DNA from: a virus
Lineage: Duplodnaviria > Caudoviricetes
Reading direction: 5' to 3' (one strand)
IMG/VR virus record: IMGVR_UViG_3300021387_003827
Location: 1-64,000 of that record
Length of the DNA: 64,000 bases
In this document: one piece after another, positions 5,386-24,119 of the stretch
How the letters are laid out: every line of letters starts with the position of its first letter
How positions within the stretch are numbered: position 1 is the stretch's first letter
Translations under genes and position numbers: made by a program
The notes under the pieces: model-generated
Databases searched by the model: none
Told to the model about the DNA's origin: nothing
The model's input: only the letters and a program-made list of their open reading frames with translations

Positions 5386-5892
5386 CTATTTCTTTAGTTT
5401 TCCAATCAAATGTCCGGCCACGGCACCAATTCCTAAACCGCTGGTAGCACCGAGAATAGCACCCCTTTTTAAATATTTCTTTCCGGTTGGGGTATCATCA
5501 GCAAGAAGAGACTCGTAATTACCAGACTTAAGCTTTTTGTTTTCTTCTCTAAGCTCTTTATTTTCTCTTGGTATGTCTCTCCATAGATCATCAGCCATTT
5601 CAACTTCAACTCTATCAAGATCATCCCAGGAAGATTCAGGCCCTCTTTCTTCTCTTTCTTTCTCGGCCCTTTCCTTGTAAACTGGATAGGCCTTCTTATT
5701 AGCTTTTATCTGCTTTTTATTCTCCTCTATTTTCTTTTTCGCGGCCTCTTTCTTTTCTTCATTGGTTGCTTTCTTTATCCCCGCCTTAGCACCAACAATA
5801 GTGCCTGCAACAAGACCGGCTGGAGCAGCAATAAGAGCACCCTTAATCATCTTAGAGGCCTTGGAGTAGTTTTTCTGTCTAAGTATAATCAT
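5386..5892 (-). CDS. Leader-tagged protein with two Gly-zipper hydrophobic segments
   Basis: Leader MIILRQKNYS (M4 of track ORF); GALIAAPAGLVAGTIVG and GAILGATSGLGIGAVAG. Confidence 0.8.
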   Translation of the reverse strand: MIILRQKNYSKASKMIKGALIAAPAGLVAGTIVGAKAGIKKATNEEKKEAAKKKIEENKKQIKANKKAYPVYKERAEKEREERGPESSWDDLDRVEVEMADDLWRDIPRENKELREENKKLKSGNYESLLADDTPTGKKYLKRGAILGATSGLGIGAVAGHLIGKLKK

Positions 5893-5903
5893 AAAATACA
5901 ATA

Positions 5904-5964
5904 CTACCCGGGAATTGATTAAAACTACCCCCCCCGGATAGAAATTTTAATGGGAAGGGGTAAG
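5904..5964 (-). ncRNA. Putative H-type pseudoknot, copy 1
   Basis: Sense strand S1 UUACCCC/GGGGUAG, S2 CUAUCCGGG/CCCGGGUAG; ends 11 nt before AUG. Confidence 0.7.
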
Positions 5965-5968
5965 CGCA

Positions 5969-6310
5969 TCATACTTTTACTCTTATTTCTAGTGCTCGTT
6001 TTGTTCTCTTATTCTCTAGACCAAAACACAGAGAATCATTTTCTAGATAAACGGCATATAACTCTAGGTCTTCTATTTTCCCTATCTTCGGATTATTGGA
6101 TACCTTTTCCTTGATCACTTCCTCTAAATTTCCTAGGGTCTCTTTTATGTTCTTCGACGTGTCCCTAGATATTCCCTTATTAAATACATAATATGTGCTA
6201 TCCCAGTTGGTTGTAATCTCCATTAGATCTGGGGCCTTTCTAGAATAATTGCATTTCTCTACTAGATCAAAAAAGTCGAGAATATTTAATTTCTTTTGAA
6301 AGATTATCAT
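5969..6310 (-). CDS. Hypothetical protein, degenerate leader MIIFQKK
   Basis: ATGA overlap with upstream gene. Confidence 0.7.
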   Translation of the reverse strand: MIIFQKKLNILDFFDLVEKCNYSRKAPDLMEITTNWDSTYYVFNKGISRDTSKNIKETLGNLEEVIKEKVSNNPKIGKIEDLELYAVYLENDSLCFGLENKRTKRALEIRVKV

Positions 6311-6795
6311 AGTCTATTTTGTATTAGTTTCTGGGAGTTTCGGAGATAGTTAATAACTTTATCATTCTCGTCATCCTCCCAGTATCTATTCTTTGTCCAA
6401 TCAATCTCATCATTCTTAAACTCTTTAAGAATTCCTTGCTTTACTTGCTGAAAAGATACTGGCTTTCCGTTTCGATTGTTGTCTATCCAGGTTTTCTTTT
6501 CAGTATCATAAGAAAAATCAATTCTGCCCTGTGGTGATTCTACAACTGGAATTATTTTTGTTTCTGGAGTTATCTCATCTTTTCTTAGTAGAGTATAGTA
6601 ACTCGCATATTCATCACCATCCCCGAGACCCGGATAGATCTTATCCAGCTCTTCCTCAAGCGATTTCAGCTTATTATACTCCTCTTTTGGAAGCCTAGAC
6701 TCTATTTCGTTAATTCTGGCCTGTTCTGTCTTCGTTTTATTAGATTTAAAAAGACCGGAGAGAAAGCTATATGTCTTCTGTCTCTTAATTATCAT
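6307..6795 (-). CDS. Leader-tagged protein, possibly SUKH/SMI1-KNR4-like
   Basis: MIIKRQKTYS; IESRLPKEEY...IIPV...G...SFQQ loosely resembles SUKH (family call weak). Confidence 0.6.
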   Translation of the reverse strand: MIIKRQKTYSFLSGLFKSNKTKTEQARINEIESRLPKEEYNKLKSLEEELDKIYPGLGDGDEYASYYTLLRKDEITPETKIIPVVESPQGRIDFSYDTEKKTWIDNNRNGKPVSFQQVKQGILKEFKNDEIDWTKNRYWEDDENDKVINYLRNSQKLIQNRL

Positions 6796-7586
6796 AGTAT
6801 TGTATTTATCTTATTATTAAACTCCTTGATCATCTCTATTTGCTTGTCGGATAAGGTATCATCAAGCTTTTTGAGATCAACCATCAGGGTTTTCTTGAGA
6901 GATTCAGAATAATCGGGGCTATCTACACCATATTTCCCTGTATTAGGACTATAACAAAGCCAACCATCATCCCCTGCTTCGTTATATGTGGCTAAACAAA
7001 GGGTACTAAATCCATCATCGTTCTCTATATTCCACCAATCTTCTGTAGTTTTTGAGTTAATAGGAATTGGGAAATATGTCTTAAACTCAGGAACTTCATA
7101 CACCTCATCTATTTTCTCTGAATCCATGCTAGAATACCAGAGCTCTATTTTCTTTGACCAGGTGTCCTTATAGAATTTGACATATTTCAAGAATTCGGCG
7201 GGAACAGGTATTTTCTTAGCTAGAGCTTGCCAAGAGGAGTAATTTAGATTCTTTGCAAGTGTCTCATCAAATCCTCTATTGTTTTCTATGGCTTTCTTTA
7301 TTCTCTTAGAGTTTTCCTTATCAACCTTCTCTCTTACCTTTGGATCGTGGTCATATTCCCACTTTGACTTTCCACTATCCCAACCAGACTTTGCTCCAGC
7401 TATGCCACCAATTAAAGCACCTGTCCCAGCAATGCCAGCAGCCAGTTTATATTTTCCAGAAAGTGCGGCTAGTTTCCAGCCAGGCATTACAGCAGCACCA
7501 ATACCTGCTCCATACCCAGCACCTTTAATTGCACCACCAAGAGAAGATGTGAATTTAGAATATGTCTTCTGTCTTAGTATTATCAT
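6792..7586 (-). CDS. Leader-tagged protein: Gly-zipper N-domain plus globular C-domain (possibly SUKH-like)
   Basis: MIILRQKTYS; GAGYGAGIGAA / GIAGTGALIGGIAG; IPVPAEFLKY...GDDGWLCY. Confidence 0.7.
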   Translation of the reverse strand: MIILRQKTYSKFTSSLGGAIKGAGYGAGIGAAVMPGWKLAALSGKYKLAAGIAGTGALIGGIAGAKSGWDSGKSKWEYDHDPKVREKVDKENSKRIKKAIENNRGFDETLAKNLNYSSWQALAKKIPVPAEFLKYVKFYKDTWSKKIELWYSSMDSEKIDEVYEVPEFKTYFPIPINSKTTEDWWNIENDDGFSTLCLATYNEAGDDGWLCYSPNTGKYGVDSPDYSESLKKTLMVDLKKLDDTLSDKQIEMIKEFNNKINTIL

Positions 7587-7730
7587 AGTTTATTGATTTT
7601 TTAATACGGCTTTTCCCAAGGACTGTCACTAAGTTTTGCAAGGTTTCTTTGCCCATTTTATCTAGTCTATCACCAAGTTTTTACCAACTTTGTAAGTTTT
7701 TAGTGACCCCTTCAAAAGAATATATTGTCT

Positions 7731-8234
7731 TTATAGTACCTTCTTCATTGCCGTCAGTCCTCCCCAATAGAAATCCTCGTCGGGCGAACTAATCTGACCA
7801 ACCTCTTTAAATCCAAGTTTTTCGTAGATATGTCTTGCATCTGGTGATATACCCGGTACTTCTAATGTTAGGGTTTTGTATCCTCTTTCTTTGGCAAACT
7901 TTATAACCCACTTTAGAACTTCCTGAGCAAATCCGTGACCTCTATATTTCTCATCAATTTCAATCCACATTACATTTAGTTCTTCTTTGGATATCTCAGT
8001 TAAATCCAGGGCGCCGATATTAGTTTTTCCTTCTAGTATATCATAGTCAGCTAAAGTTTCTAGTGTTCTTATGTTTTTAGAGCCAAATAATTTAGCCAGG
8101 ATTTTTGATATAAACGAGGCAATATGTCTAGTAAACCAGGAATCTTTGACTTTTTCTAGATGTATTCCGCGAAGGTCTATTTCTTCTGGTGCATCAGTTC
8201 TAAATGAATACACTCTTTGACGTTTAATTATCAT
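7731..8234 (-). CDS. Leader-tagged GNAT acetyltransferase
   Basis: MIIKRQRVYS; acetyl-CoA motif IDEKYRGHGFAQ and ARHIYEKLGF. Confidence 0.88.
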   Translation of the reverse strand: MIIKRQRVYSFRTDAPEEIDLRGIHLEKVKDSWFTRHIASFISKILAKLFGSKNIRTLETLADYDILEGKTNIGALDLTEISKEELNVMWIEIDEKYRGHGFAQEVLKWVIKFAKERGYKTLTLEVPGISPDARHIYEKLGFKEVGQISSPDEDFYWGGLTAMKKVL

Positions 8235-8755
8235 TTCTTCTTGGATTTTTTAATTCTTTCTTTAGTGTTAATCTCAGCCCCTAACCTGGCTGCCTTTCTT
8301 TTCTTAATTATCTTTGGGGCCTCTTTAGCTATAACACTAGTCGCACCAAGAACAGCAGCGCCCATAGCAATCTTCTTAGAGTTCTTTCCGAGGCTAGATT
8401 TTATGTTTTGTGGAATTTTTATATCAAGCCCATAGTTTTTAGCATTATTTTCTATAAAATCAGGGGACTTAGAGATAAGATATCCACCCACTCCAGCAAT
8501 AACTCCTCTTTTAGCGGCTTTTCCAACTGGTTTCCCAATATTATCAAGGGTTGCTTCTTTCCCTGCTGCCTTCTTCGCCGCTTTAATAATTTCTTCGTCA
8601 GACTTTCCTTCTTCTGCCGCTTTGTCTGCAGCCTCCTTTCCAACTCTAAAATATTTCTCAGCATCTACCTTACCGTTTCCATCTTGTATCCAGCCAATCC
8701 CTATTCTAGAATCTTTAAGTTTTTCAGAATACGTCTTTTGTATTAGTATTATCAT
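8231..8755 (-). CDS. Leader-tagged basic protein with two hydrophobic segments
   Basis: MIILIQKTYS; GVIAGVGGYLI, IAMGAAVLGATSVIA. Confidence 0.75.
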   Translation of the reverse strand: MIILIQKTYSEKLKDSRIGIGWIQDGNGKVDAEKYFRVGKEAADKAAEEGKSDEEIIKAAKKAAGKEATLDNIGKPVGKAAKRGVIAGVGGYLISKSPDFIENNAKNYGLDIKIPQNIKSSLGKNSKKIAMGAAVLGATSVIAKEAPKIIKKRKAARLGAEINTKERIKKSKKK

Positions 8756-9894
8756 TTCTTTCCTCTCCTTTTCTTTTTCTTTCCCAAGCCCATTTCTTCA
8801 TTAACAAAACGATTAATATCCTTCTGTTTAGGATGCTTAGACGTATCTTCGGGATGATATTTTTTATATAATTTTTCATTAATCATCCCTTCACCAACTT
8901 TAGCTGCAACCATCCCACCAGCCAATCCTGCACTGATTGCTGCATTGCGATTAGATATCTCTCTGTTTCCTTTAGTGAGTATTTCAGCAGCTCCATTACC
9001 AAGAGCATTGGCCAAAACTGCAGTAGAAGAAGCTCTGCTAATGTTTCGGGCTCTTTTCAGTTTTCTTTTATCTTTCTCAAGCTCCCTCTCTTTGTCGGTC
9101 ATCTTGCTTTCTTCCAGCTGCCTCTTTTTATATTTATAGGCTATATTCTTAGCAGCTTTTGATCCTAGAGTAGAAATCGCTGCTCCAGCTACATAACCAT
9201 TAAACGCTTTGCCATTTGATTTCCTAGCGGCTTTTAATAGTTTCTCTGACGCCCCGGCCTTTTTGAGAAGTTTTTGGCCGTAAATAGACGCAGCACCTTC
9301 TGACACTAAAACGGGAACGTATGTTCCGGCTGAGAGATATGGAGCAGCTTTACCTATTTTGGATTCTTCTTCTCCCCTCTCTTCTTTTTTGGCTTTATCA
9401 ATACCAGCCGCAATACTAGAAGATATTCCAGCAACTCCAGCTATATTTTGGTCTAAATATAGTTTATGAGCTATTTTTGGAACTAGGCCTGCTTTTTTGT
9501 CAGCGTGAAAGTGTGCATGCCCTAATTCATGTGCCAAAGTCGAGGCATCCTTATCTGCGACCCTAATAATCTTTTTCTTAAAATCATATGAATCATTTCT
9601 TTTCATGGTATTGGGCATGTGTTTTATCCTTGTCTTAGACTCTTTTCTCAGCTTATCAAAGACTTCTTCACTTTCTTCTTTTATGGCAGGATCTTTTCGT
9701 AGAAGTTTCTTTATTTTCTTTTTAACCCGGCTGTCTCCAGACTTCTCTTTTAATTTCTCTTGAAGTGGAGCAGCAGCGCCTTCTATAAAGTACGGTAATG
9801 TTCCTCCAATAGCTGCCGCCGTTAATACTCCATTTTCAACTTTAGAGCCTTTCTTTTCCTTTTTTGAAAAAGCTCTCTGTCTTAGTATTATCAT
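8752..9894 (-). CDS. Leader-tagged membrane zinc metallopeptidase (HExxH, Zn_peptidase_2-like)
   Basis: MIILRQRAFS; TLAHELGHAHFH with downstream VSEGAAS and GYVAG; several hydrophobic helices. Confidence 0.75.
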   Translation of the reverse strand: MIILRQRAFSKKEKKGSKVENGVLTAAAIGGTLPYFIEGAAAPLQEKLKEKSGDSRVKKKIKKLLRKDPAIKEESEEVFDKLRKESKTRIKHMPNTMKRNDSYDFKKKIIRVADKDASTLAHELGHAHFHADKKAGLVPKIAHKLYLDQNIAGVAGISSSIAAGIDKAKKEERGEEESKIGKAAPYLSAGTYVPVLVSEGAASIYGQKLLKKAGASEKLLKAARKSNGKAFNGYVAGAAISTLGSKAAKNIAYKYKKRQLEESKMTDKERELEKDKRKLKRARNISRASSTAVLANALGNGAAEILTKGNREISNRNAAISAGLAGGMVAAKVGEGMINEKLYKKYHPEDTSKHPKQKDINRFVNEEMGLGKKKKRRGKK

Positions 9895-19183: not shown

Positions 19184-19217
19184 ATCCCAGATAAGTACAT
19201 TCAAACTACACTGGGAT
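19184..19217 (-). other. Conserved-loop hairpin, copy 2
   Basis: AUCCCAG-UGUAGUUUGAAUGUACUUAU-CUGGGAU. Confidence 0.55.
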
Positions 19218-19225
19218 AATAGTTC

Positions 19226-19864
19226 TCAGCTTTTCTTTTTCTTACTGAGTTTCTTTTGACGCTTAGAATCAAGTTTATCCATATACTTTAATGCTTTCTC
19301 ACGATCTTTATATACTTCAATCCTCTCTTCATTTTGCTCTTTATCGTATGGAATAGGGTCCTTTAGGTAGTTTCCTTTCTTATCAACCCTCCAACCAATA
19401 GGGACATAGTCTTTTTCTTTCTTTCTCCTGTCTTTCTTAGAAGATTTCAGATAATCAATAACCTCTTTATCTCCCTTATTCCAGATTTCTTCCATGGTTC
19501 TGACATCCTTTCTCCTGGTTATGCCTTTTCCAATCTGGTTTCCAATAAAGGCGGAGCCGATAACTATTGCTCTTTTCGGATCTTTTCCCGACCCTACTCG
19601 CTTATTATTAATTACTTTGCCAGCAACATATCCAGTACCAAGACCAAGGAGACCGCTTTTGAATTGATTACGCCTAAATCTTTCTCTTCCAGCACTATCA
19701 GTATCATCAAACATTATTTGGGCTTGGGCTCTTTCCCTATCGGATGCTTTTTCTAAGAGTTTGTCACGTTCTTTATTGCGCTCCAGCTCCTCTTTCTTAT
19801 TTTTCTCCCACTCTTCATCTCCAGCTACTCCTGCGCGGAATTCTTTCTGTCTTAATATAATCAT
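19226..19864 (-). CDS. Leader-tagged basic protein with Gly-rich segments
   Basis: MIILRQKEFR; GLLGLGTGYVAG. Confidence 0.75.
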   Translation of the reverse strand: MIILRQKEFRAGVAGDEEWEKNKKEELERNKERDKLLEKASDRERAQAQIMFDDTDSAGRERFRRNQFKSGLLGLGTGYVAGKVINNKRVGSGKDPKRAIVIGSAFIGNQIGKGITRRKDVRTMEEIWNKGDKEVIDYLKSSKKDRRKKEKDYVPIGWRVDKKGNYLKDPIPYDKEQNEERIEVYKDREKALKYMDKLDSKRQKKLSKKKKS

Positions 19865-19877
19865 ATCTTTTTCTAAA

Positions 19878-19943
19878 AACTCTGGGGGAATCTTTAAACC
19901 TATTGCCCCCTCCCCAAAGTCTATATATTTTTTAAAGGGAGCA
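19878..19943 (-). ncRNA. Putative H-type pseudoknot, copy 3
   Basis: S1 UGCUCCCU/AGGGGGCA, S2 GACUUUGGGG/CCCCAGAGUU. Confidence 0.7.
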
Positions 19944-19950
19944 GAGTAAT

Positions 19951-20019
19951 CTATTCTTTATCTTTATTCTTTTTCTTCAGGGCCTTTACACCAGCCACAG
20001 CAGCACCAGTGGCAAGAGT
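19951..20019. repeat. 69-bp direct repeat (68/69) with 21186..21254
   Basis: Both encode TLATGAAVAGVKALKKKNKDKE*. Confidence 0.9.
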
Positions 20020-20487
20020 ACCACCAATTACCCAAGGAGCGGCTTTTTTAACGTTCTTTAGAATAGCCTGTTTTTTAGCATTTTTTCTAATAGCATCCTT
20101 TATTTCTTTATTAGAAATAGATCTTACTGATTCACCAAAAACATCTCCCTGCTGCATTCTTTGATTATTCATTCTAAGAAAGTCTCTATATGCACTAACT
20201 GGATCTTTTGTTGAGTGAAATTCTTGGGAGATTTTTCTACCACCACTACTTAATCCCTCATGAAACGAAATGTGCAGGCCATCCTTTCCAGCACAAATCT
20301 TGCCTCCAGATTTAGTAGTTTTGTATTTTCTTTTTCCAAGAATAAGATCTCTCCCTTCTTTAGTAATTTGGTTGGAGCGTTTGAATTCCCCATCTTGAAT
20401 ATGAAAATCTTTACCCATCGGTCCATCAAATCCGGTCTGGGAAGCATAAACTGAGGTAGCAAAGGTTTTCTGTCTTAGTAATATCAT
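19951..20487 (-). CDS. Leader-tagged tail-anchored protein
   Basis: MILLRQKTFA (M31 of track ORF); AAPWVIGGTLATGAAVAGVKALKKK. Confidence 0.8.
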   Translation of the reverse strand: MILLRQKTFATSVYASQTGFDGPMGKDFHIQDGEFKRSNQITKEGRDLILGKRKYKTTKSGGKICAGKDGLHISFHEGLSSGGRKISQEFHSTKDPVSAYRDFLRMNNQRMQQGDVFGESVRSISNKEIKDAIRKNAKKQAILKNVKKAAPWVIGGTLATGAAVAGVKALKKKNKDKE

Positions 20488-20491
20488 AATC

Positions 20492-21106
20492 TTACTTATT
20501 ATCCTTTTTATTAGCTTTCTTTTTCTTATAGGCTTTAATGCCTGCAGCTGTTGCACCAATAGTCGCAGTTCCACCAATTACCCAAGGAGCAGCCTTCTTT
20601 AGCTTCCTTGTGGCCTTCTTTAGTTTTCGTTGAACTTTTGTTCTTTTGATCTTTTCTTTATAATAATCATCTAGAGAATTTGAAAAATCGTGGCTATCTC
20701 TAAGTGGGCCAGTTTTCCAATCTTCTAGGGCAGCAGCTGCTTCTTCTCTTGATCTGAATCCGGCCCTGCTTCTGGACCTATTATCGCTATTTTCAAGCGC
20801 CGGCTTACTTCTTGCATTAACACTTCTCGCCAGTACCTCTTTTTCTTCTAGACTGATGTTCTTTTGTTCTCTTGGATCAATGGGAGTATATTTTCTTTTT
20901 GCTTGTCTATATCTACGTATAATACTATCCTGTTCTTCTTTTGGAAGATATTTATATTCAGAATTTTTAAGAAAGTCTTCTGGCTCTATTCCCAGTTTTT
21001 TAGCTTGCTCAAGTTCATAAAATTTCTTTCTTAGTTTCTTTCTGGCTCTTTCTTCCAATTTTTTCTCTCCGGCTTCAGAGTATAATCTTTCTCTTAGTAT
21101 AATCAT
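20492..21106 (-). CDS. Leader-tagged tail-anchored protein
   Basis: MIILRERLYSEAG; AAPWVIGGTATIGATAAGIKAYKKK. Confidence 0.8.
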   Translation of the reverse strand: MIILRERLYSEAGEKKLEERARKKLRKKFYELEQAKKLGIEPEDFLKNSEYKYLPKEEQDSIIRRYRQAKRKYTPIDPREQKNISLEEKEVLARSVNARSKPALENSDNRSRSRAGFRSREEAAAALEDWKTGPLRDSHDFSNSLDDYYKEKIKRTKVQRKLKKATRKLKKAAPWVIGGTATIGATAAGIKAYKKKKANKKDNK

Positions 21107-21116
21107 AAAATATCAT

Positions 21117-21182
21117 ATCTACCAGGAAAGTTGTTAAATTATCCTCCCCTCTGGTAGATTTTGTTTTACGGGGAGGAGCAAT
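21117..21182 (-). ncRNA. Putative H-type pseudoknot, copy 4
   Basis: S1 AUUG(C)UCCUCCCC/GGGGAGGAUAAU, S2 AUCUACCAG/CUGGUAGAU. Confidence 0.8.
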
Positions 21183-21185
21183 TAT

Positions 21186-21860
21186 CTATTCTTTATCTTT
21201 ATTCTTTTTCTTCAGGGCCTTTACACCAGCCACAGCAGCACCGGTGGCAAGAGTTCCAGCAGCAATATATGGAGCAGCTTTTTTAATGGCCTTCGCTCTT
21301 TCTAATTTTTTAATACGCGCAAGTCTCTCGGGTGCTTCTCTACTAATTTCCGCCCTCATCTGTCTCTTCGCTTTTTGGGCTTCCCATGCTTCAACTTTTC
21401 GGTCAAAATCTGATGCTGCTTTTTTACGCTCAGCTTCACGAATTTCAAAATTTTCTTTAATATTTCGTTGTAATTCTTCCCATTCCTTCTTTCTCTTATA
21501 GTCACTTAATGCCTCTGATCTAGAATTTTTAAAATCTTTTAAATTATCTGCCTTAATTTTTGCCTTTTCCTCAAGAATATCTTTTGGTCCACTCCATTGC
21601 TGTTCAAATCTAGCCAGACTCAGTTTTCCGTCTTCTTTTGTTGCAGCATCCTGGATTTTCTTCAGCTTTTCAGGATTAAACATAGTCCTGAGTTCCCGCA
21701 GACTATTGATGTGTTTTTCTTGTCCGATAATTTCAGAATTTTTTAAATTTTCGGCCTGCTGTTCTATCTGCCACTTCCTCTTGTTGGCTTTCTTCTTGGC
21801 TCTTTCTTCCAATTTCTTCTTCCCAGCTTCAGAGTATAATCTTTCTCTTAGTATAATCAT
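21186..21860 (-). CDS. Leader-tagged tail-anchored coiled-coil protein
   Basis: MIILRERLYSEAG; AAPYIAAGTLATGAAVAGVKALKKK. Confidence 0.8.
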   Translation of the reverse strand: MIILRERLYSEAGKKKLEERAKKKANKRKWQIEQQAENLKNSEIIGQEKHINSLRELRTMFNPEKLKKIQDAATKEDGKLSLARFEQQWSGPKDILEEKAKIKADNLKDFKNSRSEALSDYKRKKEWEELQRNIKENFEIREAERKKAASDFDRKVEAWEAQKAKRQMRAEISREAPERLARIKKLERAKAIKKAAPYIAAGTLATGAAVAGVKALKKKNKDKE

Positions 21861-21872
21861 ATCCAATTTTAT

Positions 21873-21939
21873 CTATGGAGGACTTGATTAAAGATATACC
21901 CCTCTCCCCCATAGTATTGATTTAATAGGGGATATATCT
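21873..21939 (-). ncRNA. Putative H-type pseudoknot, copy 5
   Basis: S1 AGAUAUA(U)CCCCU/AGGGGUAUAUCU, S2 CUAUGGGGG/CCUCCAUAG. Confidence 0.75.
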
Positions 21940-21978
21940 ATAAAAACATTAGAACTAATCGCTCTTTATCATATCAGA

Positions 21979-22449
21979 TTATGCTGCCTTATCCTTCTTT
22001 TTCTTTGCAGCATAACCAATCCCAGCTGCAGTACCAAGAACAACAGCACCGGTAGCAACAGGATGTTTCTTTACTATGTCTACTCCCTTCTTGCCAAGTT
22101 TCCAAGCCTTCTTTGCAGCATCATTAAAGGCAGCTCTTTTCTTGGCACCATCAAAAGCCTTCTCCACTTTATCTGGATTTATATTCTTTCTATCGATTGC
22201 TTTATGAACGAGTGACATATTTCCAGCCTCACGAGCAGAAGCAACAGAAGCTTTATCTGCAATCTGTAAAGTCTTCTTGGCAGCATTTAATTCTTCTGTG
22301 GTCATTGCTTCCTTAGCCAATTTCTCTGCTTCTTTGGCCTTATTGGCAGCCCGGTTAGCGTGCATTTCAGCATTCTGGGCTTTTCTTTCCATTTTTCTTC
22401 TCTGCTTTCTTTCACGTGCAGAAAATAATTCTTCTCTAAGTATAATCAT
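21979..22449 (-). CDS. Leader-tagged tail-anchored Ala/Lys-rich protein
   Basis: MIILREELFS; HPVATGAVVLGTAAGIGYAAKKKK. Confidence 0.8.
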   Translation of the reverse strand: MIILREELFSARERKQRRKMERKAQNAEMHANRAANKAKEAEKLAKEAMTTEELNAAKKTLQIADKASVASAREAGNMSLVHKAIDRKNINPDKVEKAFDGAKKRAAFNDAAKKAWKLGKKGVDIVKKHPVATGAVVLGTAAGIGYAAKKKKDKAA

Positions 22450-22715
22450 CGTAAAATTCTCCTTAGTTTCATTTCATTCCCTGTCTTCCGGAGTTCTGCC
22501 TGCTTTGCCCGAATATCTCTTTTTGATATATTCCCAATTATGTTTGAAGTAGCTTTCTCTAGACCGGAAGTAGTTTTGTCAATTTCCTTTATATCCTTCT
22601 GTATACCTTTATCTGATCTTCTCCTTACTTTCGCCCAATAAGAAGAAACCGGATCGAGGGAAGAATAGTCAGTACGTTTTGTAGAAGAATAAAGGTTTTG
22701 TCGTTTTAATATCAT
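22446..22715 (-). CDS. Leader-tagged small basic protein
   Basis: MILKRQNLYS; ATGA overlaps. Confidence 0.7.
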   Translation of the reverse strand: MILKRQNLYSSTKRTDYSSLDPVSSYWAKVRRRSDKGIQKDIKEIDKTTSGLEKATSNIIGNISKRDIRAKQAELRKTGNEMKLRRILR

Positions 22716-23077
22716 TTCTCTTTCTTTATTAATTTAAGTCCAAGAGTGAAATAGAAGACATCATCGCAGCAGTCATTCTCTGCTTTTATCATCCAAGCAT
22801 CAACTCCGCTTTCTTCGAGTCGTTTTATAAATTTACCAAGAATATTAAAGTAGTGGGACCATTTTCCAGGGCCATTCCATCCACCAGAGAGTTCAACCGT
22901 AAAAGTTCCATATTCATCGGTTTTAAATTCTAGTGCTCCTCCTAATGTTTGTAATTTACTCCCTAATACAGTTTTCCCACCGTCGGTTATAAACTCTGGC
23001 TCCTTTAATGTGTTCTCGAAGATTTCTTTTATTCTTTTTTCACCCTCCGGAGAGAATAGTTTCCTTCGTAGTTTCAT
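22712..23077 (-). CDS. Leader-tagged hypothetical protein
   Basis: MKLRRKLFS. Confidence 0.7.
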   Translation of the reverse strand: MKLRRKLFSPEGEKRIKEIFENTLKEPEFITDGGKTVLGSKLQTLGGALEFKTDEYGTFTVELSGGWNGPGKWSHYFNILGKFIKRLEESGVDAWMIKAENDCCDDVFYFTLGLKLIKKEK

Positions 23078-23158
23078 GGGTTTATTGAGTTTTGAGTTTA
23101 GGGCCCTAGGTATGGTTCTTAGGGCCCATCTTTCTCTTGTCGTCCTCTACTGTTTCTT

Positions 23159-23806
23159 TTACTCAGCTTTGCCTTCCCATTTATCTTTAAATTCCTGTGG
23201 AGTCATTTTCCCAAGAGCTACTTTAGAATAATCTGCACTAATTTCTCTATTTGTCTTATTTCTTGGGTCTTTTCCGTGCTTCTTCATCTCTTTTTCATGC
23301 ATTTTTCCTACTAAATGCCCGCCGAGATATCCAATACCAGCTCCAGCAGCAGCGCCGATAGCAGCATTCCTAGGATTTACCCTACCATAAGGATCGAAAG
23401 CATTAACAGAGGCACCCTGTAGTGCGCCGGCAGCAGTTAGGACTTTCTTTATAGTCTTTTTATCTCTATCTATCACTCTATTCTCAGCCTCTTCGTCTCC
23501 TTCATCAATGCTCTTAATAACATCTTCATTAGCATCTTTATCCATTCTAGCTCGAGCCATTATATACCGTCTATCATTCTTGTCAAGGCCGGCTTTCTTT
23601 ATAGACTTTTTAAGCTCTCTTCGCTCTTTTCTTGTTGTAGTTTTTTCTGAAAACTCTTTCTGTGCATAATCATAACCGTCCTCGATTCCACTGTAATAAA
23701 CTTCTTCCAGAATAGCATCGAGTTCTTCATCGCCAGTACTAAATAATTTCTGGCTCTCTTCGGTCTGAGAAAAACACTTCTCAGCGAAATCTTTTCCACT
23801 TATCAT
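23159..23806 (-). CDS. Protein with acidic pro-region carrying three KxFS sites, then a Gly-zipper domain
   Basis: EKCFS, QKLFS, QKEFS; AAIGAAAGAGIGYLGG. Confidence 0.75.
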   Translation of the reverse strand: MISGKDFAEKCFSQTEESQKLFSTGDEELDAILEEVYYSGIEDGYDYAQKEFSEKTTTRKERRELKKSIKKAGLDKNDRRYIMARARMDKDANEDVIKSIDEGDEEAENRVIDRDKKTIKKVLTAAGALQGASVNAFDPYGRVNPRNAAIGAAAGAGIGYLGGHLVGKMHEKEMKKHGKDPRNKTNREISADYSKVALGKMTPQEFKDKWEGKAE

Positions 23807-23822
23807 AATTATAAAACATTCA

Positions 23823-23895
23823 TCTACCAGAAAAAGTTATTAAATCACCATCCTTCCCCCCCCCCTGGTAGAATATTTTAATGGGAGAAGGCATG
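23823..23895 (-). ncRNA. Putative H-type pseudoknot, copy 6
   Basis: S1 CAU(G)CCUUCUCCC/GGGGGAAGGAUG, S2 UCUACCAG/CUGGUAGA; G10 tract at the junction. Confidence 0.75.
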
Positions 23896-23900
23896 AATCT

Positions 23901-24119
23901 TTATTTTATCTTCTGTATAAATTTATGAGGCTTATTTCCGGCCAGATTTTTATACAATGACATAAATCTCTTACCTTCTTTCTCTCCACCACGAGCTATA
24001 TGTTTTTCTAAAGCTAACTTGGCATCGGTAAGATTATGTTTTGGTATAGAGATTTTATATTTACCTATTCTGGCTATTTGAATTCCACTATAGGTCTTCT
24101 GTTTTCTCTTTAGTATCAT
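23901..24119 (-). CDS. Leader-tagged small basic protein
   Basis: MILKRKQKTYS. Confidence 0.7.
   Translation of the reverse strand: MILKRKQKTYSGIQIARIGKYKISIPKHNLTDAKLALEKHIARGGEKEGKRFMSLYKNLAGNKPHKFIQKIK

Follow-up and report, generated by a model that had tools for sequence, protein, structure and literature searches.

The RNase III sites of phage T7 are intercistronic RNAs that occur in multiple copies just upstream of genes, keep their structure while their sequence varies, and have been demonstrated to be cleaved. The pseudoknot in the leader of phage T4 gene 32 is small, exists in a single copy 67 nucleotides (nt) upstream of the AUG and is bound by the gene's own single-stranded DNA-binding protein (PMC3014915). 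In enterobacteria, a likewise single-copy pseudoknot joins two distant stem-loops of the timP toxin mRNA, an antisense-RNA target, and is essential for translation initiation (PMC11228461). Here we describe an RNA element from the genome of an uncultured gut jumbo phage, 182,986 bp long and with direct terminal repeats (IMGVR_UViG_3300021387_003827), the first 64 kb of which were analysed as one stretch, referred to as the window throughout. The element occurs six times in the window and is predicted to form an H-type pseudoknot. It belongs to a known kind, the structured cis-acting mRNA leader, and is linked to the start sites of small capsid-cargo genes. With strong covariation in both stems, it represents a new, previously uncatalogued RNA family.

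The original prediction had named six sites, and a copy of the element was found at each of them on the minus strand, which is the sense strand of the adjoining genes. Every copy follows the proposed order, i.e. the 5′ strand of stem 1, a first loop, the 5′ strand of stem 2, the 3′ strand of stem 1, a last loop and the 3′ strand of stem 2, and the stem 2 sequences quoted earlier were correct. The element is 60–75 nt long with a stem 1 of 8–17 bp and a stem 2 of 8–11 bp, the sequence of the latter being free. The 5′ strand of stem 1 is composed of a variable outer part and a C/U tract, its 3′ strand of a G run and a variable outer part. There is no spacer, or nearly none, between the 5′ strand of stem 2 and the 3′ strand of stem 1, and the two helices have at most one or two G residues of this junction run in common. 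They can stack into a single rod of 20–27 bp. Both loops are A/U-rich (10–15 nt in loop 1 and 10–18 nt in the last loop, called loop 3 here), the span enclosed by either stem is about 20–30 nt, and loops of roughly 10–16 nt are proposed to run along the helix grooves. The recurrence of UUUAA at or near the start of the last loop extends to all six window copies and is less constant in related phages. Runs of at least seven G residues occur only three times in the whole genome, every one of them inside an element and on the sense strand. The 5′ strands of stem 1 (5957–5963, 21170–21177; also in L069, L072, L078 and L080) often resemble the 3′ tail of 16S rRNA (CCUCCUUU-like), and the 3′ strands read like Shine-Dalgarno (SD) sequences (GGAGG or plain G runs). 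This likeness may be a mere by-product of pairing a pyrimidine tract with a G run.

A strict pseudoknot scan of the whole genome returned eight minus-strand matches, six of which were the reported sites, and a single plus-strand match. The latter was copy c4 read backwards, whose pairs are Watson-Crick throughout. Five shuffled genomes gave 2–6 matches, both strands summed. Covariance models were seeded from one copy aligned to itself, and the remaining copies were realigned by Infernal; alignments made with MAFFT had the stems out of register and were excluded from model building. With a model from c4 alone that contained only stem 2, the other five copies were the top minus-strand matches in the 64 kb. 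A further model, R2, was trained on eight copies with c4 left out. It retrieved the untrained c4 as top match (66.1 bits, E = 5.9e-11) and found exactly six matches over the 182,986-bp genome.

Beyond this genome, R2 matched 30 of 66 related jumbo-phage records. These relatives had been reached via the capsid protein and via a DNA pattern coding for an N-terminal cargo tag (MIILRQKxF/YS or close variants), with which about 26 genes of the window begin. The scan for the tag-coding pattern gave 52 loci, mostly chance matches, and led to the relative G001. The number of matches was six in G001, a 95.8-kb fragment, and two in some and one in other members of a group of about 360 kb; overall, copy number ranges from 0 to 6 among the relatives. 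The 35 aligned matches correspond to 27 distinct sequences with about ten unrelated stem 2 sequences. In about 1.1 Mb of other phage records R2 found no match, and a megablast search of the region against GenBank phages was equally negative. The element is so far confined to one clade of gut jumbo phages. The junction G run differs among otherwise identical orthologues, with 6, 7, 8 or 9 G residues among L197, L175, L082 and L203 (G002-like phages), and 12 as compared with 10 G residues in a second pair (L180 and L179). Such differences are either slipped-strand polymorphism or errors in homopolymer assembly; if real, they could tune the fold.

The covariation claimed in the original prediction holds for stem 2. 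The stem 2 alignment was fitted to the structure, which inflates the figures somewhat, yet the margin is still large: 96.6% of the cells form standard pairs as compared with 56.7% after shuffling, eight of the nine pairs change on both sides, and double-change cells number 83 instead of 23.9. Sliding the partner columns by 1–3 positions reduces pairing to 24–47%. Stem 1 was tested with a separate model (R3), seeded from copy c5, and five wrong-strand rows were removed from the alignment. As had been claimed, it varies between copies with its pairing kept (92.5% paired against 68.3% after shuffling). Its covariation score is 0.786, the shuffled value is 0.293, and none of 500 shuffles reached the observed figure; the outer six pairs include AU, UA, CG, GC, GU and UG. 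Independently of any alignment, stem 2 strands bind their own partner with −11.1 kcal/mol and the strands of unrelated copies with only −2.5 kcal/mol. The difference is more modest for stem 1 (−17.9 against −14.6 kcal/mol with non-cognate partners); every copy has the generic core of C/U tract and G run, and a specific outer extension is found in only about half of them. With this helix order, covariation in both stems and separate nucleotides for the two helices, the element is assigned to the H-type RNA pseudoknots.

The strand preference that had been taken as a sign of RNA is present in all elements compared. In 23 of 23, the helices on the sense strand are at least as stable as those on the antisense strand (mean −29.0 and −20.9 kcal/mol, respectively; Wilcoxon p = 2e-7); numerous G-U pairs of the sense strand are A-C mismatches when read from the opposite one. 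This points to an element that acts as RNA transcribed in gene direction. The mismatches are also at odds with a DNA-level element, i.e. a recombination or cassette boundary or a single-stranded DNA structure that shuffles cargo genes, which we regard as very unlikely. Such an explanation would agree with the variable copy number among relatives and with the shuffled look of neighbouring genes at the 5′ ends of the c4 and c5 genes and at the 3′ ends upstream of c3 and c4. However, covarying stems without a conserved sequence offer little homology for recombination, and the divergence between copies is far greater than that between the flanking coding ends. For instance, the first 37 coding nt of the c4 and c5 genes are almost identical, whereas their pseudoknots have neither stem in common. 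Shared last codons are found in the genes that precede c3 and c4. Apparently, gene ends have been exchanged or homogenised, the elements have not.

In keeping with the earlier statement that no known family was recognisable, a search of Rfam 15 with 15 isolated copies from eight genomes gave no match at E ≤ 1, and the only match at gathering level in the window was tRNA-Asp. A published description of the element was not found in the literature. Phage and gut metagenomes contain many small pseudoknotted ribozymes and riboswitches, which would suit a self-cleaving ribozyme or a ligand-sensing riboswitch with a pseudoknot core. We consider either highly improbable, as the negative Rfam result is accompanied by the lack of any invariant block outside the G and C tracts: in the 27 sequences, no column is invariant beyond the G run and the C/U tract. 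The known riboswitch classes (preQ1, SAM-II/V, fluoride, guanidine-III) and the known small ribozymes (pistol, twister, hatchet, HDV-like, hammerhead) were rejected on these two grounds. For an HDV-like fold, in addition, the required P3 hairpin between the two 5′ strands and the P1 3′ strand is absent.

All six copies lie on the minus strand in one co-directional block of small genes, which runs from about 30 kb down to 5 kb and surrounds the terminase gene. Copy c1 (5904–5963) pairs 5957–5963 with 5925–5931 in stem 1 and 5933–5941 with 5904–5912 in stem 2, with loop 1 at 5942–5956, loop 3 at 5913–5924 and a run of eight G residues across the junction. It scores 50 bits with R2 (E = 1.4e-7), follows the upstream stop codon (5969–5971) by 5 nt and ends 11 nt before the AUG of a tagged cargo-type protein (5386–5892, 168 amino acids (aa), MIILRQKNYS). 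In c2 (10434–10499; 61.8 bits), stem 1 joins 10487–10499 to 10453–10465 with several G-U pairs, and stem 2 joins 10466–10474 to 10434–10442; the loops occupy 10475–10486 and 10443–10452. Its stem 1 duplex reaches −17.9 kcal/mol with the cognate strand, −10.4 kcal/mol with non-cognate partners and −5.6 kcal/mol on the antisense strand. The gene behind it (9891–10421, 176 aa, MIILRQREFS) is the first of four genes joined by stop/start overlaps. Copy c3 (19878–19943; 58.4 bits) begins 7 nt after the upstream stop codon at 19951–19953. It consists of stem 1 (19936–19943 with 19904–19911), stem 2 (19912–19921 with 19878–19887), loop 1 (19922–19935) and loop 3 (19888–19903), and it precedes a gene for 212 aa (19226–19864, MIILRQKEF).

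Copies c4 and c5 are close neighbours. The former (21117–21177) has its stem 1 at 21170–21177 and 21142–21149, its stem 2 at 21151–21159 and 21117–21125, and its loops at 21160–21169 and 21126–21141; the gene at 20492–21106 follows (204 aa, MIILRERLYS). The latter (21873–21939; 48.5 bits) has an 11-bp stem 1 (21929–21939 with 21892–21902), a stem 2 formed by 21906–21914 and 21873–21881, a loop 1 at 21915–21928 and a loop 3 at 21882–21891, and is followed by the gene at 21186–21860 (224 aa, MIILRERLYS). Stem 1 of c6 (23823–23895; 50.2 bits) is made up of 23884–23891 with 23852–23859 and of 23893–23895 with 23849–23851, stem 2 of 23865–23872 with 23823–23830; loop 1 covers 23873–23882 and loop 3 covers 23831–23848. 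This copy contains a run of ten G residues and starts 5 nt after the upstream stop codon (23901–23903). Its gene (23159–23806, 215 aa) encodes a protein with a glycine-zipper segment. The claim that all copies stand upstream of tagged genes was correct for five of the six, whose products begin with MIILRQ or MIILRE, and failed at c6, whose product begins with MISGKDF. KCFS/KLFS motifs are nonetheless present in the c6 protein, and its cargo family is also encoded behind the element in a relative. Five homologues with 31–47% identity were found in G001, four of which (34–47% identity) are immediately preceded by a copy of the element whose stems are entirely different; none was found in three large relatives.

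The element keeps a tight distance to the next start codon. A distance of 10–16 nt from the end of stem 2 to the AUG had been reported and was reproduced for the six window copies; across all elements the gap is 6–19 nt with a median of 12 nt, A/U-rich and almost devoid of C. Loop 3 can pair with the start region in only two of the six copies, which was taken as chance. Every match has an open reading frame (ORF) directly behind it on the same strand, and 21 of 23 downstream proteins have the cargo tag or a near variant of it at their N terminus. On the other side, only a few nt usually separate stem 1 from the end of the upstream ORF, so that stop codon and stem 2 are 26–34 nt apart in 14 of the 23 elements. 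Depending on the copy, the upstream stop is between about 0 and 115 nt away. Eight or nine elements have 50–140 nt between stop codon and stem 2, and in each of them the surplus DNA precedes the fold, with none inserted between fold and AUG. Therefore, the element is tied to the downstream start.

This last observation bears directly on the possibility that the element serves mRNA processing or stability. The pseudoknot would then mark a boundary in polycistronic late RNA and, after endonucleolytic cleavage in the A/U-rich flank, shield either the upstream message at its 3′ end or the downstream one at its 5′ end from exonucleases, so that neighbouring cargo messages decay at different rates. 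RNase III sites have this role between the genes of T7. The intercistronic, multi-copy arrangement with most copies within a few nt of an upstream stop codon, the 20–27-bp rod that the stacked helices would form and the lack of a promoter-like motif belonging to the elements are all compatible with this explanation. Given spare DNA, however, the fold stays beside the AUG and not beside the upstream stop, there is no sign of a cleavage site, and the hairpin-plus-U terminators of this genome could protect 3′ ends. On balance, we hold a processing function to be possible but doubtful.

A location just past stop codons is also typical of terminators, and the put RNAs of phage HK022 are precedents for structured cis-acting antiterminator RNAs. 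A transcription-level signal to the polymerase of the late block (pause, attenuator, terminator or antiterminator RNA) nevertheless appears quite unlikely. Scans for sigma-70-type promoters and for terminators gave counts equal to those of shuffled sequences and nothing consistent at the elements, with a terminator flag at c1 only. Stem 1 encloses a long loop of 20–25 nt, and ordinary hairpin-plus-U terminators are used elsewhere in the genome. An intrinsic terminator in particular was rejected, as no consistent U tract follows either helix and most relatives have none. The search for a conserved promoter motif upstream of the elements revealed general A-richness only. A CCTTAT(A/T)-type motif, probably the phage's own promoter type, is found 10–28 nt before several starts (236, 10846, 12156, 31528, 33456, 34655 and 34664 in the window), often just after a terminator-like hairpin. 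None of these seven genes bears an element, and a phage promoter cassette of this type was thus discarded as an explanation. Recoding was rejected as well: a conserved extension frame is missing, read-through frames end after 7–36 codons and in four of five cases do not match the frame of the following gene, shifted frames end within 1–20 codons except at c3, and the distance to the upstream stop is variable.

SD-like motifs precede 15 of 204 genes, which equals the background rate (6.5%), and the sequence in the 25 nt ahead of start codons is rich in A/U and poor in G. The phage genome does not use SD sites; no phage-encoded ribosomal protein S21 was found in it. Bacteroidota and their phages translate without SD pairing, and the pattern fits a host, probably a member of this phylum, that initiates in the same way. 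In the window, five of about 26 tagged genes have an element, which is therefore not part of the tag system itself. The majority of tagged genes that lack an element start a few bases inside the gene before them. Junctions with an element are those at which overlap cannot provide coupling. Published work shows that termination-reinitiation coupling requires overlaps or very short gaps (PMC10666635).

The interpretation we favour, with a rough probability of 0.4, is a cis-acting intercistronic leader through which de novo initiation at the following gene is organised. Such a role, tied to the start codon, is favoured by the tight gap in front of it, by the absence of SD use and by the lack of promoter or terminator features. 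The element occupies the untranslated gap at the few junctions without stop/start overlap and ends about 12 nt before the AUG. By locking the upstream non-coding RNA into one very stable, self-contained structure, the fold would leave a short A/U-rich landing pad and the start codon single-stranded and would place a rigid, loop-decorated helix where the platform of the 30S subunit and ribosomal protein S1 meet the mRNA. As a result, ribosomes would start efficiently and de novo whether or not the upstream gene is translated, in a host that does not use SD pairing. The timP example illustrates that a pseudoknot can be essential for initiation (PMC11228461), and bacterial ribosomes can be recruited by structured RNAs via protein S1 (PMC9458429). 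A bolder extension assigns the element the function of an internal ribosome landing module for SD-less translation, in which a pre-formed rod, its stem 1 composed of an anti-SD-like C/U tract and an SD-like G tract, would dock on the 30S platform and replace the SD:anti-SD helix. Changes in the length of the junction run (6 to 9 G residues among otherwise identical orthologues) would then provide phage lineages with heritable, switch-like tuning of capsid cargo amounts. We think this extension improbable.

Several observations weigh against the leader interpretation. Two complete relatives of 353 and 400 kb gave no match (in the 400-kb record, 150 of 218 candidates were scored), and the element is thus dispensable. 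The fifth G001 homologue of the c6 gene follows a plain 26-nt A-rich gap instead of an element, so that at this gene family the element is old and maintained, yet losable. Within the block, the tagged genes at 7586, 11450, 15523 and 23077 do not overlap their predecessors and lack an element all the same. Moreover, the tight gap to the AUG could merely be the minimum that spares the ribosome in a compact genome. At the level of structure, the nested-fold energies of single copies were no better than those of shuffled sequences (z-scores from −1.8 to +0.7). This is expected because the two pseudoknot helices compete in nested folding. Best and centroid structures indeed switch between a stem 1 hairpin and a stem 2 hairpin, and flipping of this kind should be seen with two compatible, non-nested helices of similar strength. 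Support for the element is comparative, not thermodynamic. That both helices form at once we infer from their separate nucleotides, from loops long enough to cross the grooves and from the covariation of both stems. The block also has a structured leader of another kind: ahead of the tagged gene at 23077, a gap of 81 nt contains a perfect G+C-rich hairpin of 8–10 bp (23101–23127; GGGCCCUA ... UAGGGCCC) that ends 24 nt before the AUG.

The products encoded behind the elements matter for the idea that the fold is an operator at which an RNA-binding protein of phage or host origin would repress or time the translation of a set of cargo genes. A common shape with free stem sequences would suit recognition of shape plus loops, semi-conserved motifs occur in loop 1 (UUAAAA-like) and in loop 3 (UUUAA or UAA), and T4 offers a precedent in gp32, which nucleates on its own leader pseudoknot (PMC3014915). 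Against this, the loop motifs are only loosely kept in relatives and no candidate binding protein was identified. The downstream genes code for diverse small tagged proteins, among which no nucleic-acid-binding domain was found, and not for one autoregulated RNA- or DNA-binding protein. We therefore judge an operator rather unlikely. An operator of the gene 32 type in the strict sense was rejected on account of the 6–19-nt gap to the AUG, the six copies per genome and the diversity of the genes behind them.

Further features of the genome surround this system. The window encodes a tail sheath, a neck or portal-like protein and a highly conserved capsid protein, whose relatives are phages from gut metagenomes of up to about 400 kb. 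With TerL as bait, a single relative was recovered (L007, IMGVR_UViG_3300031994_000435), whose terminase is 78% identical over the N-terminal half. Tail-fibre genes lie upstream of the L007 terminase, with neither an element nor tagged cargo genes, and gene order around the terminase is therefore not conserved. In the window, the terminase gene is flanked by two large paralogous ORFs (12221–13765 and 17512–19080) with Cys-x-x-Cys repeats, both of which end in a W/F-I/V-EYNGEQHY motif. They look like inserted homing-endonuclease-type genes. Of the tagged proteins encoded at 7731–8234 and 8752–9894, one is a GNAT acetyltransferase (Pfam E = 2e-10) and another has a weak IrrE/M78 peptidase-like match below the cut-off.

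To our knowledge, it is poorly understood how internal starts on long phage messages are chosen and ranked in Bacteroidota. The element, with its conserved shape, free sequence and fixed distance to start codons, recurs across a large clade of human-gut jumbo phages and is a concrete, mutable object for studying how structure near the landing pad sets initiation or message stability. It may help to explain what sets the quantities in which about 40 capsid-loaded proteins are made, and could serve as a portable expression part for Bacteroidota.

Compared with the described systems, the element resembles the T7 RNase III sites in being intercistronic and multi-copy, in measuring about two helix turns and in belonging to long phage transcripts, but those sites are irregular hairpins with an internal loop and not pseudoknots. 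It has in common with the gene 32 leader of T4 and T2 the H-type fold with coaxially stacked stems in a phage mRNA leader, the A/U-rich unstructured RNA that runs into the start site and the UUAA(A)-type motifs nearby (PMC3014915). In contrast to the gene 32 pseudoknot, it is large in both stems and loops and is separated from the AUG by about 12 nt; a genome can contain as many as six copies, and the cargo genes behind them are small and diverse. Like the timP pseudoknot it is located upstream of the ribosome-binding region (PMC11228461), whereas timP functions in an SD-using host and shares neither sequence nor architecture with it. As in platform-docking structured operators such as the rpsO (S15) pseudoknot and in S1-dependent entry on structured RNAs, a fold beside the start would meet the 30S platform and protein S1; those folds include or overlap the SD sequence and the AUG and serve repression or entrapment (PMC7038950, PMC9458429). 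The element described here, in contrast, leaves the start region free and resides in a genome without SD use. With it, a new family is added to the short list of phage leader pseudoknots.

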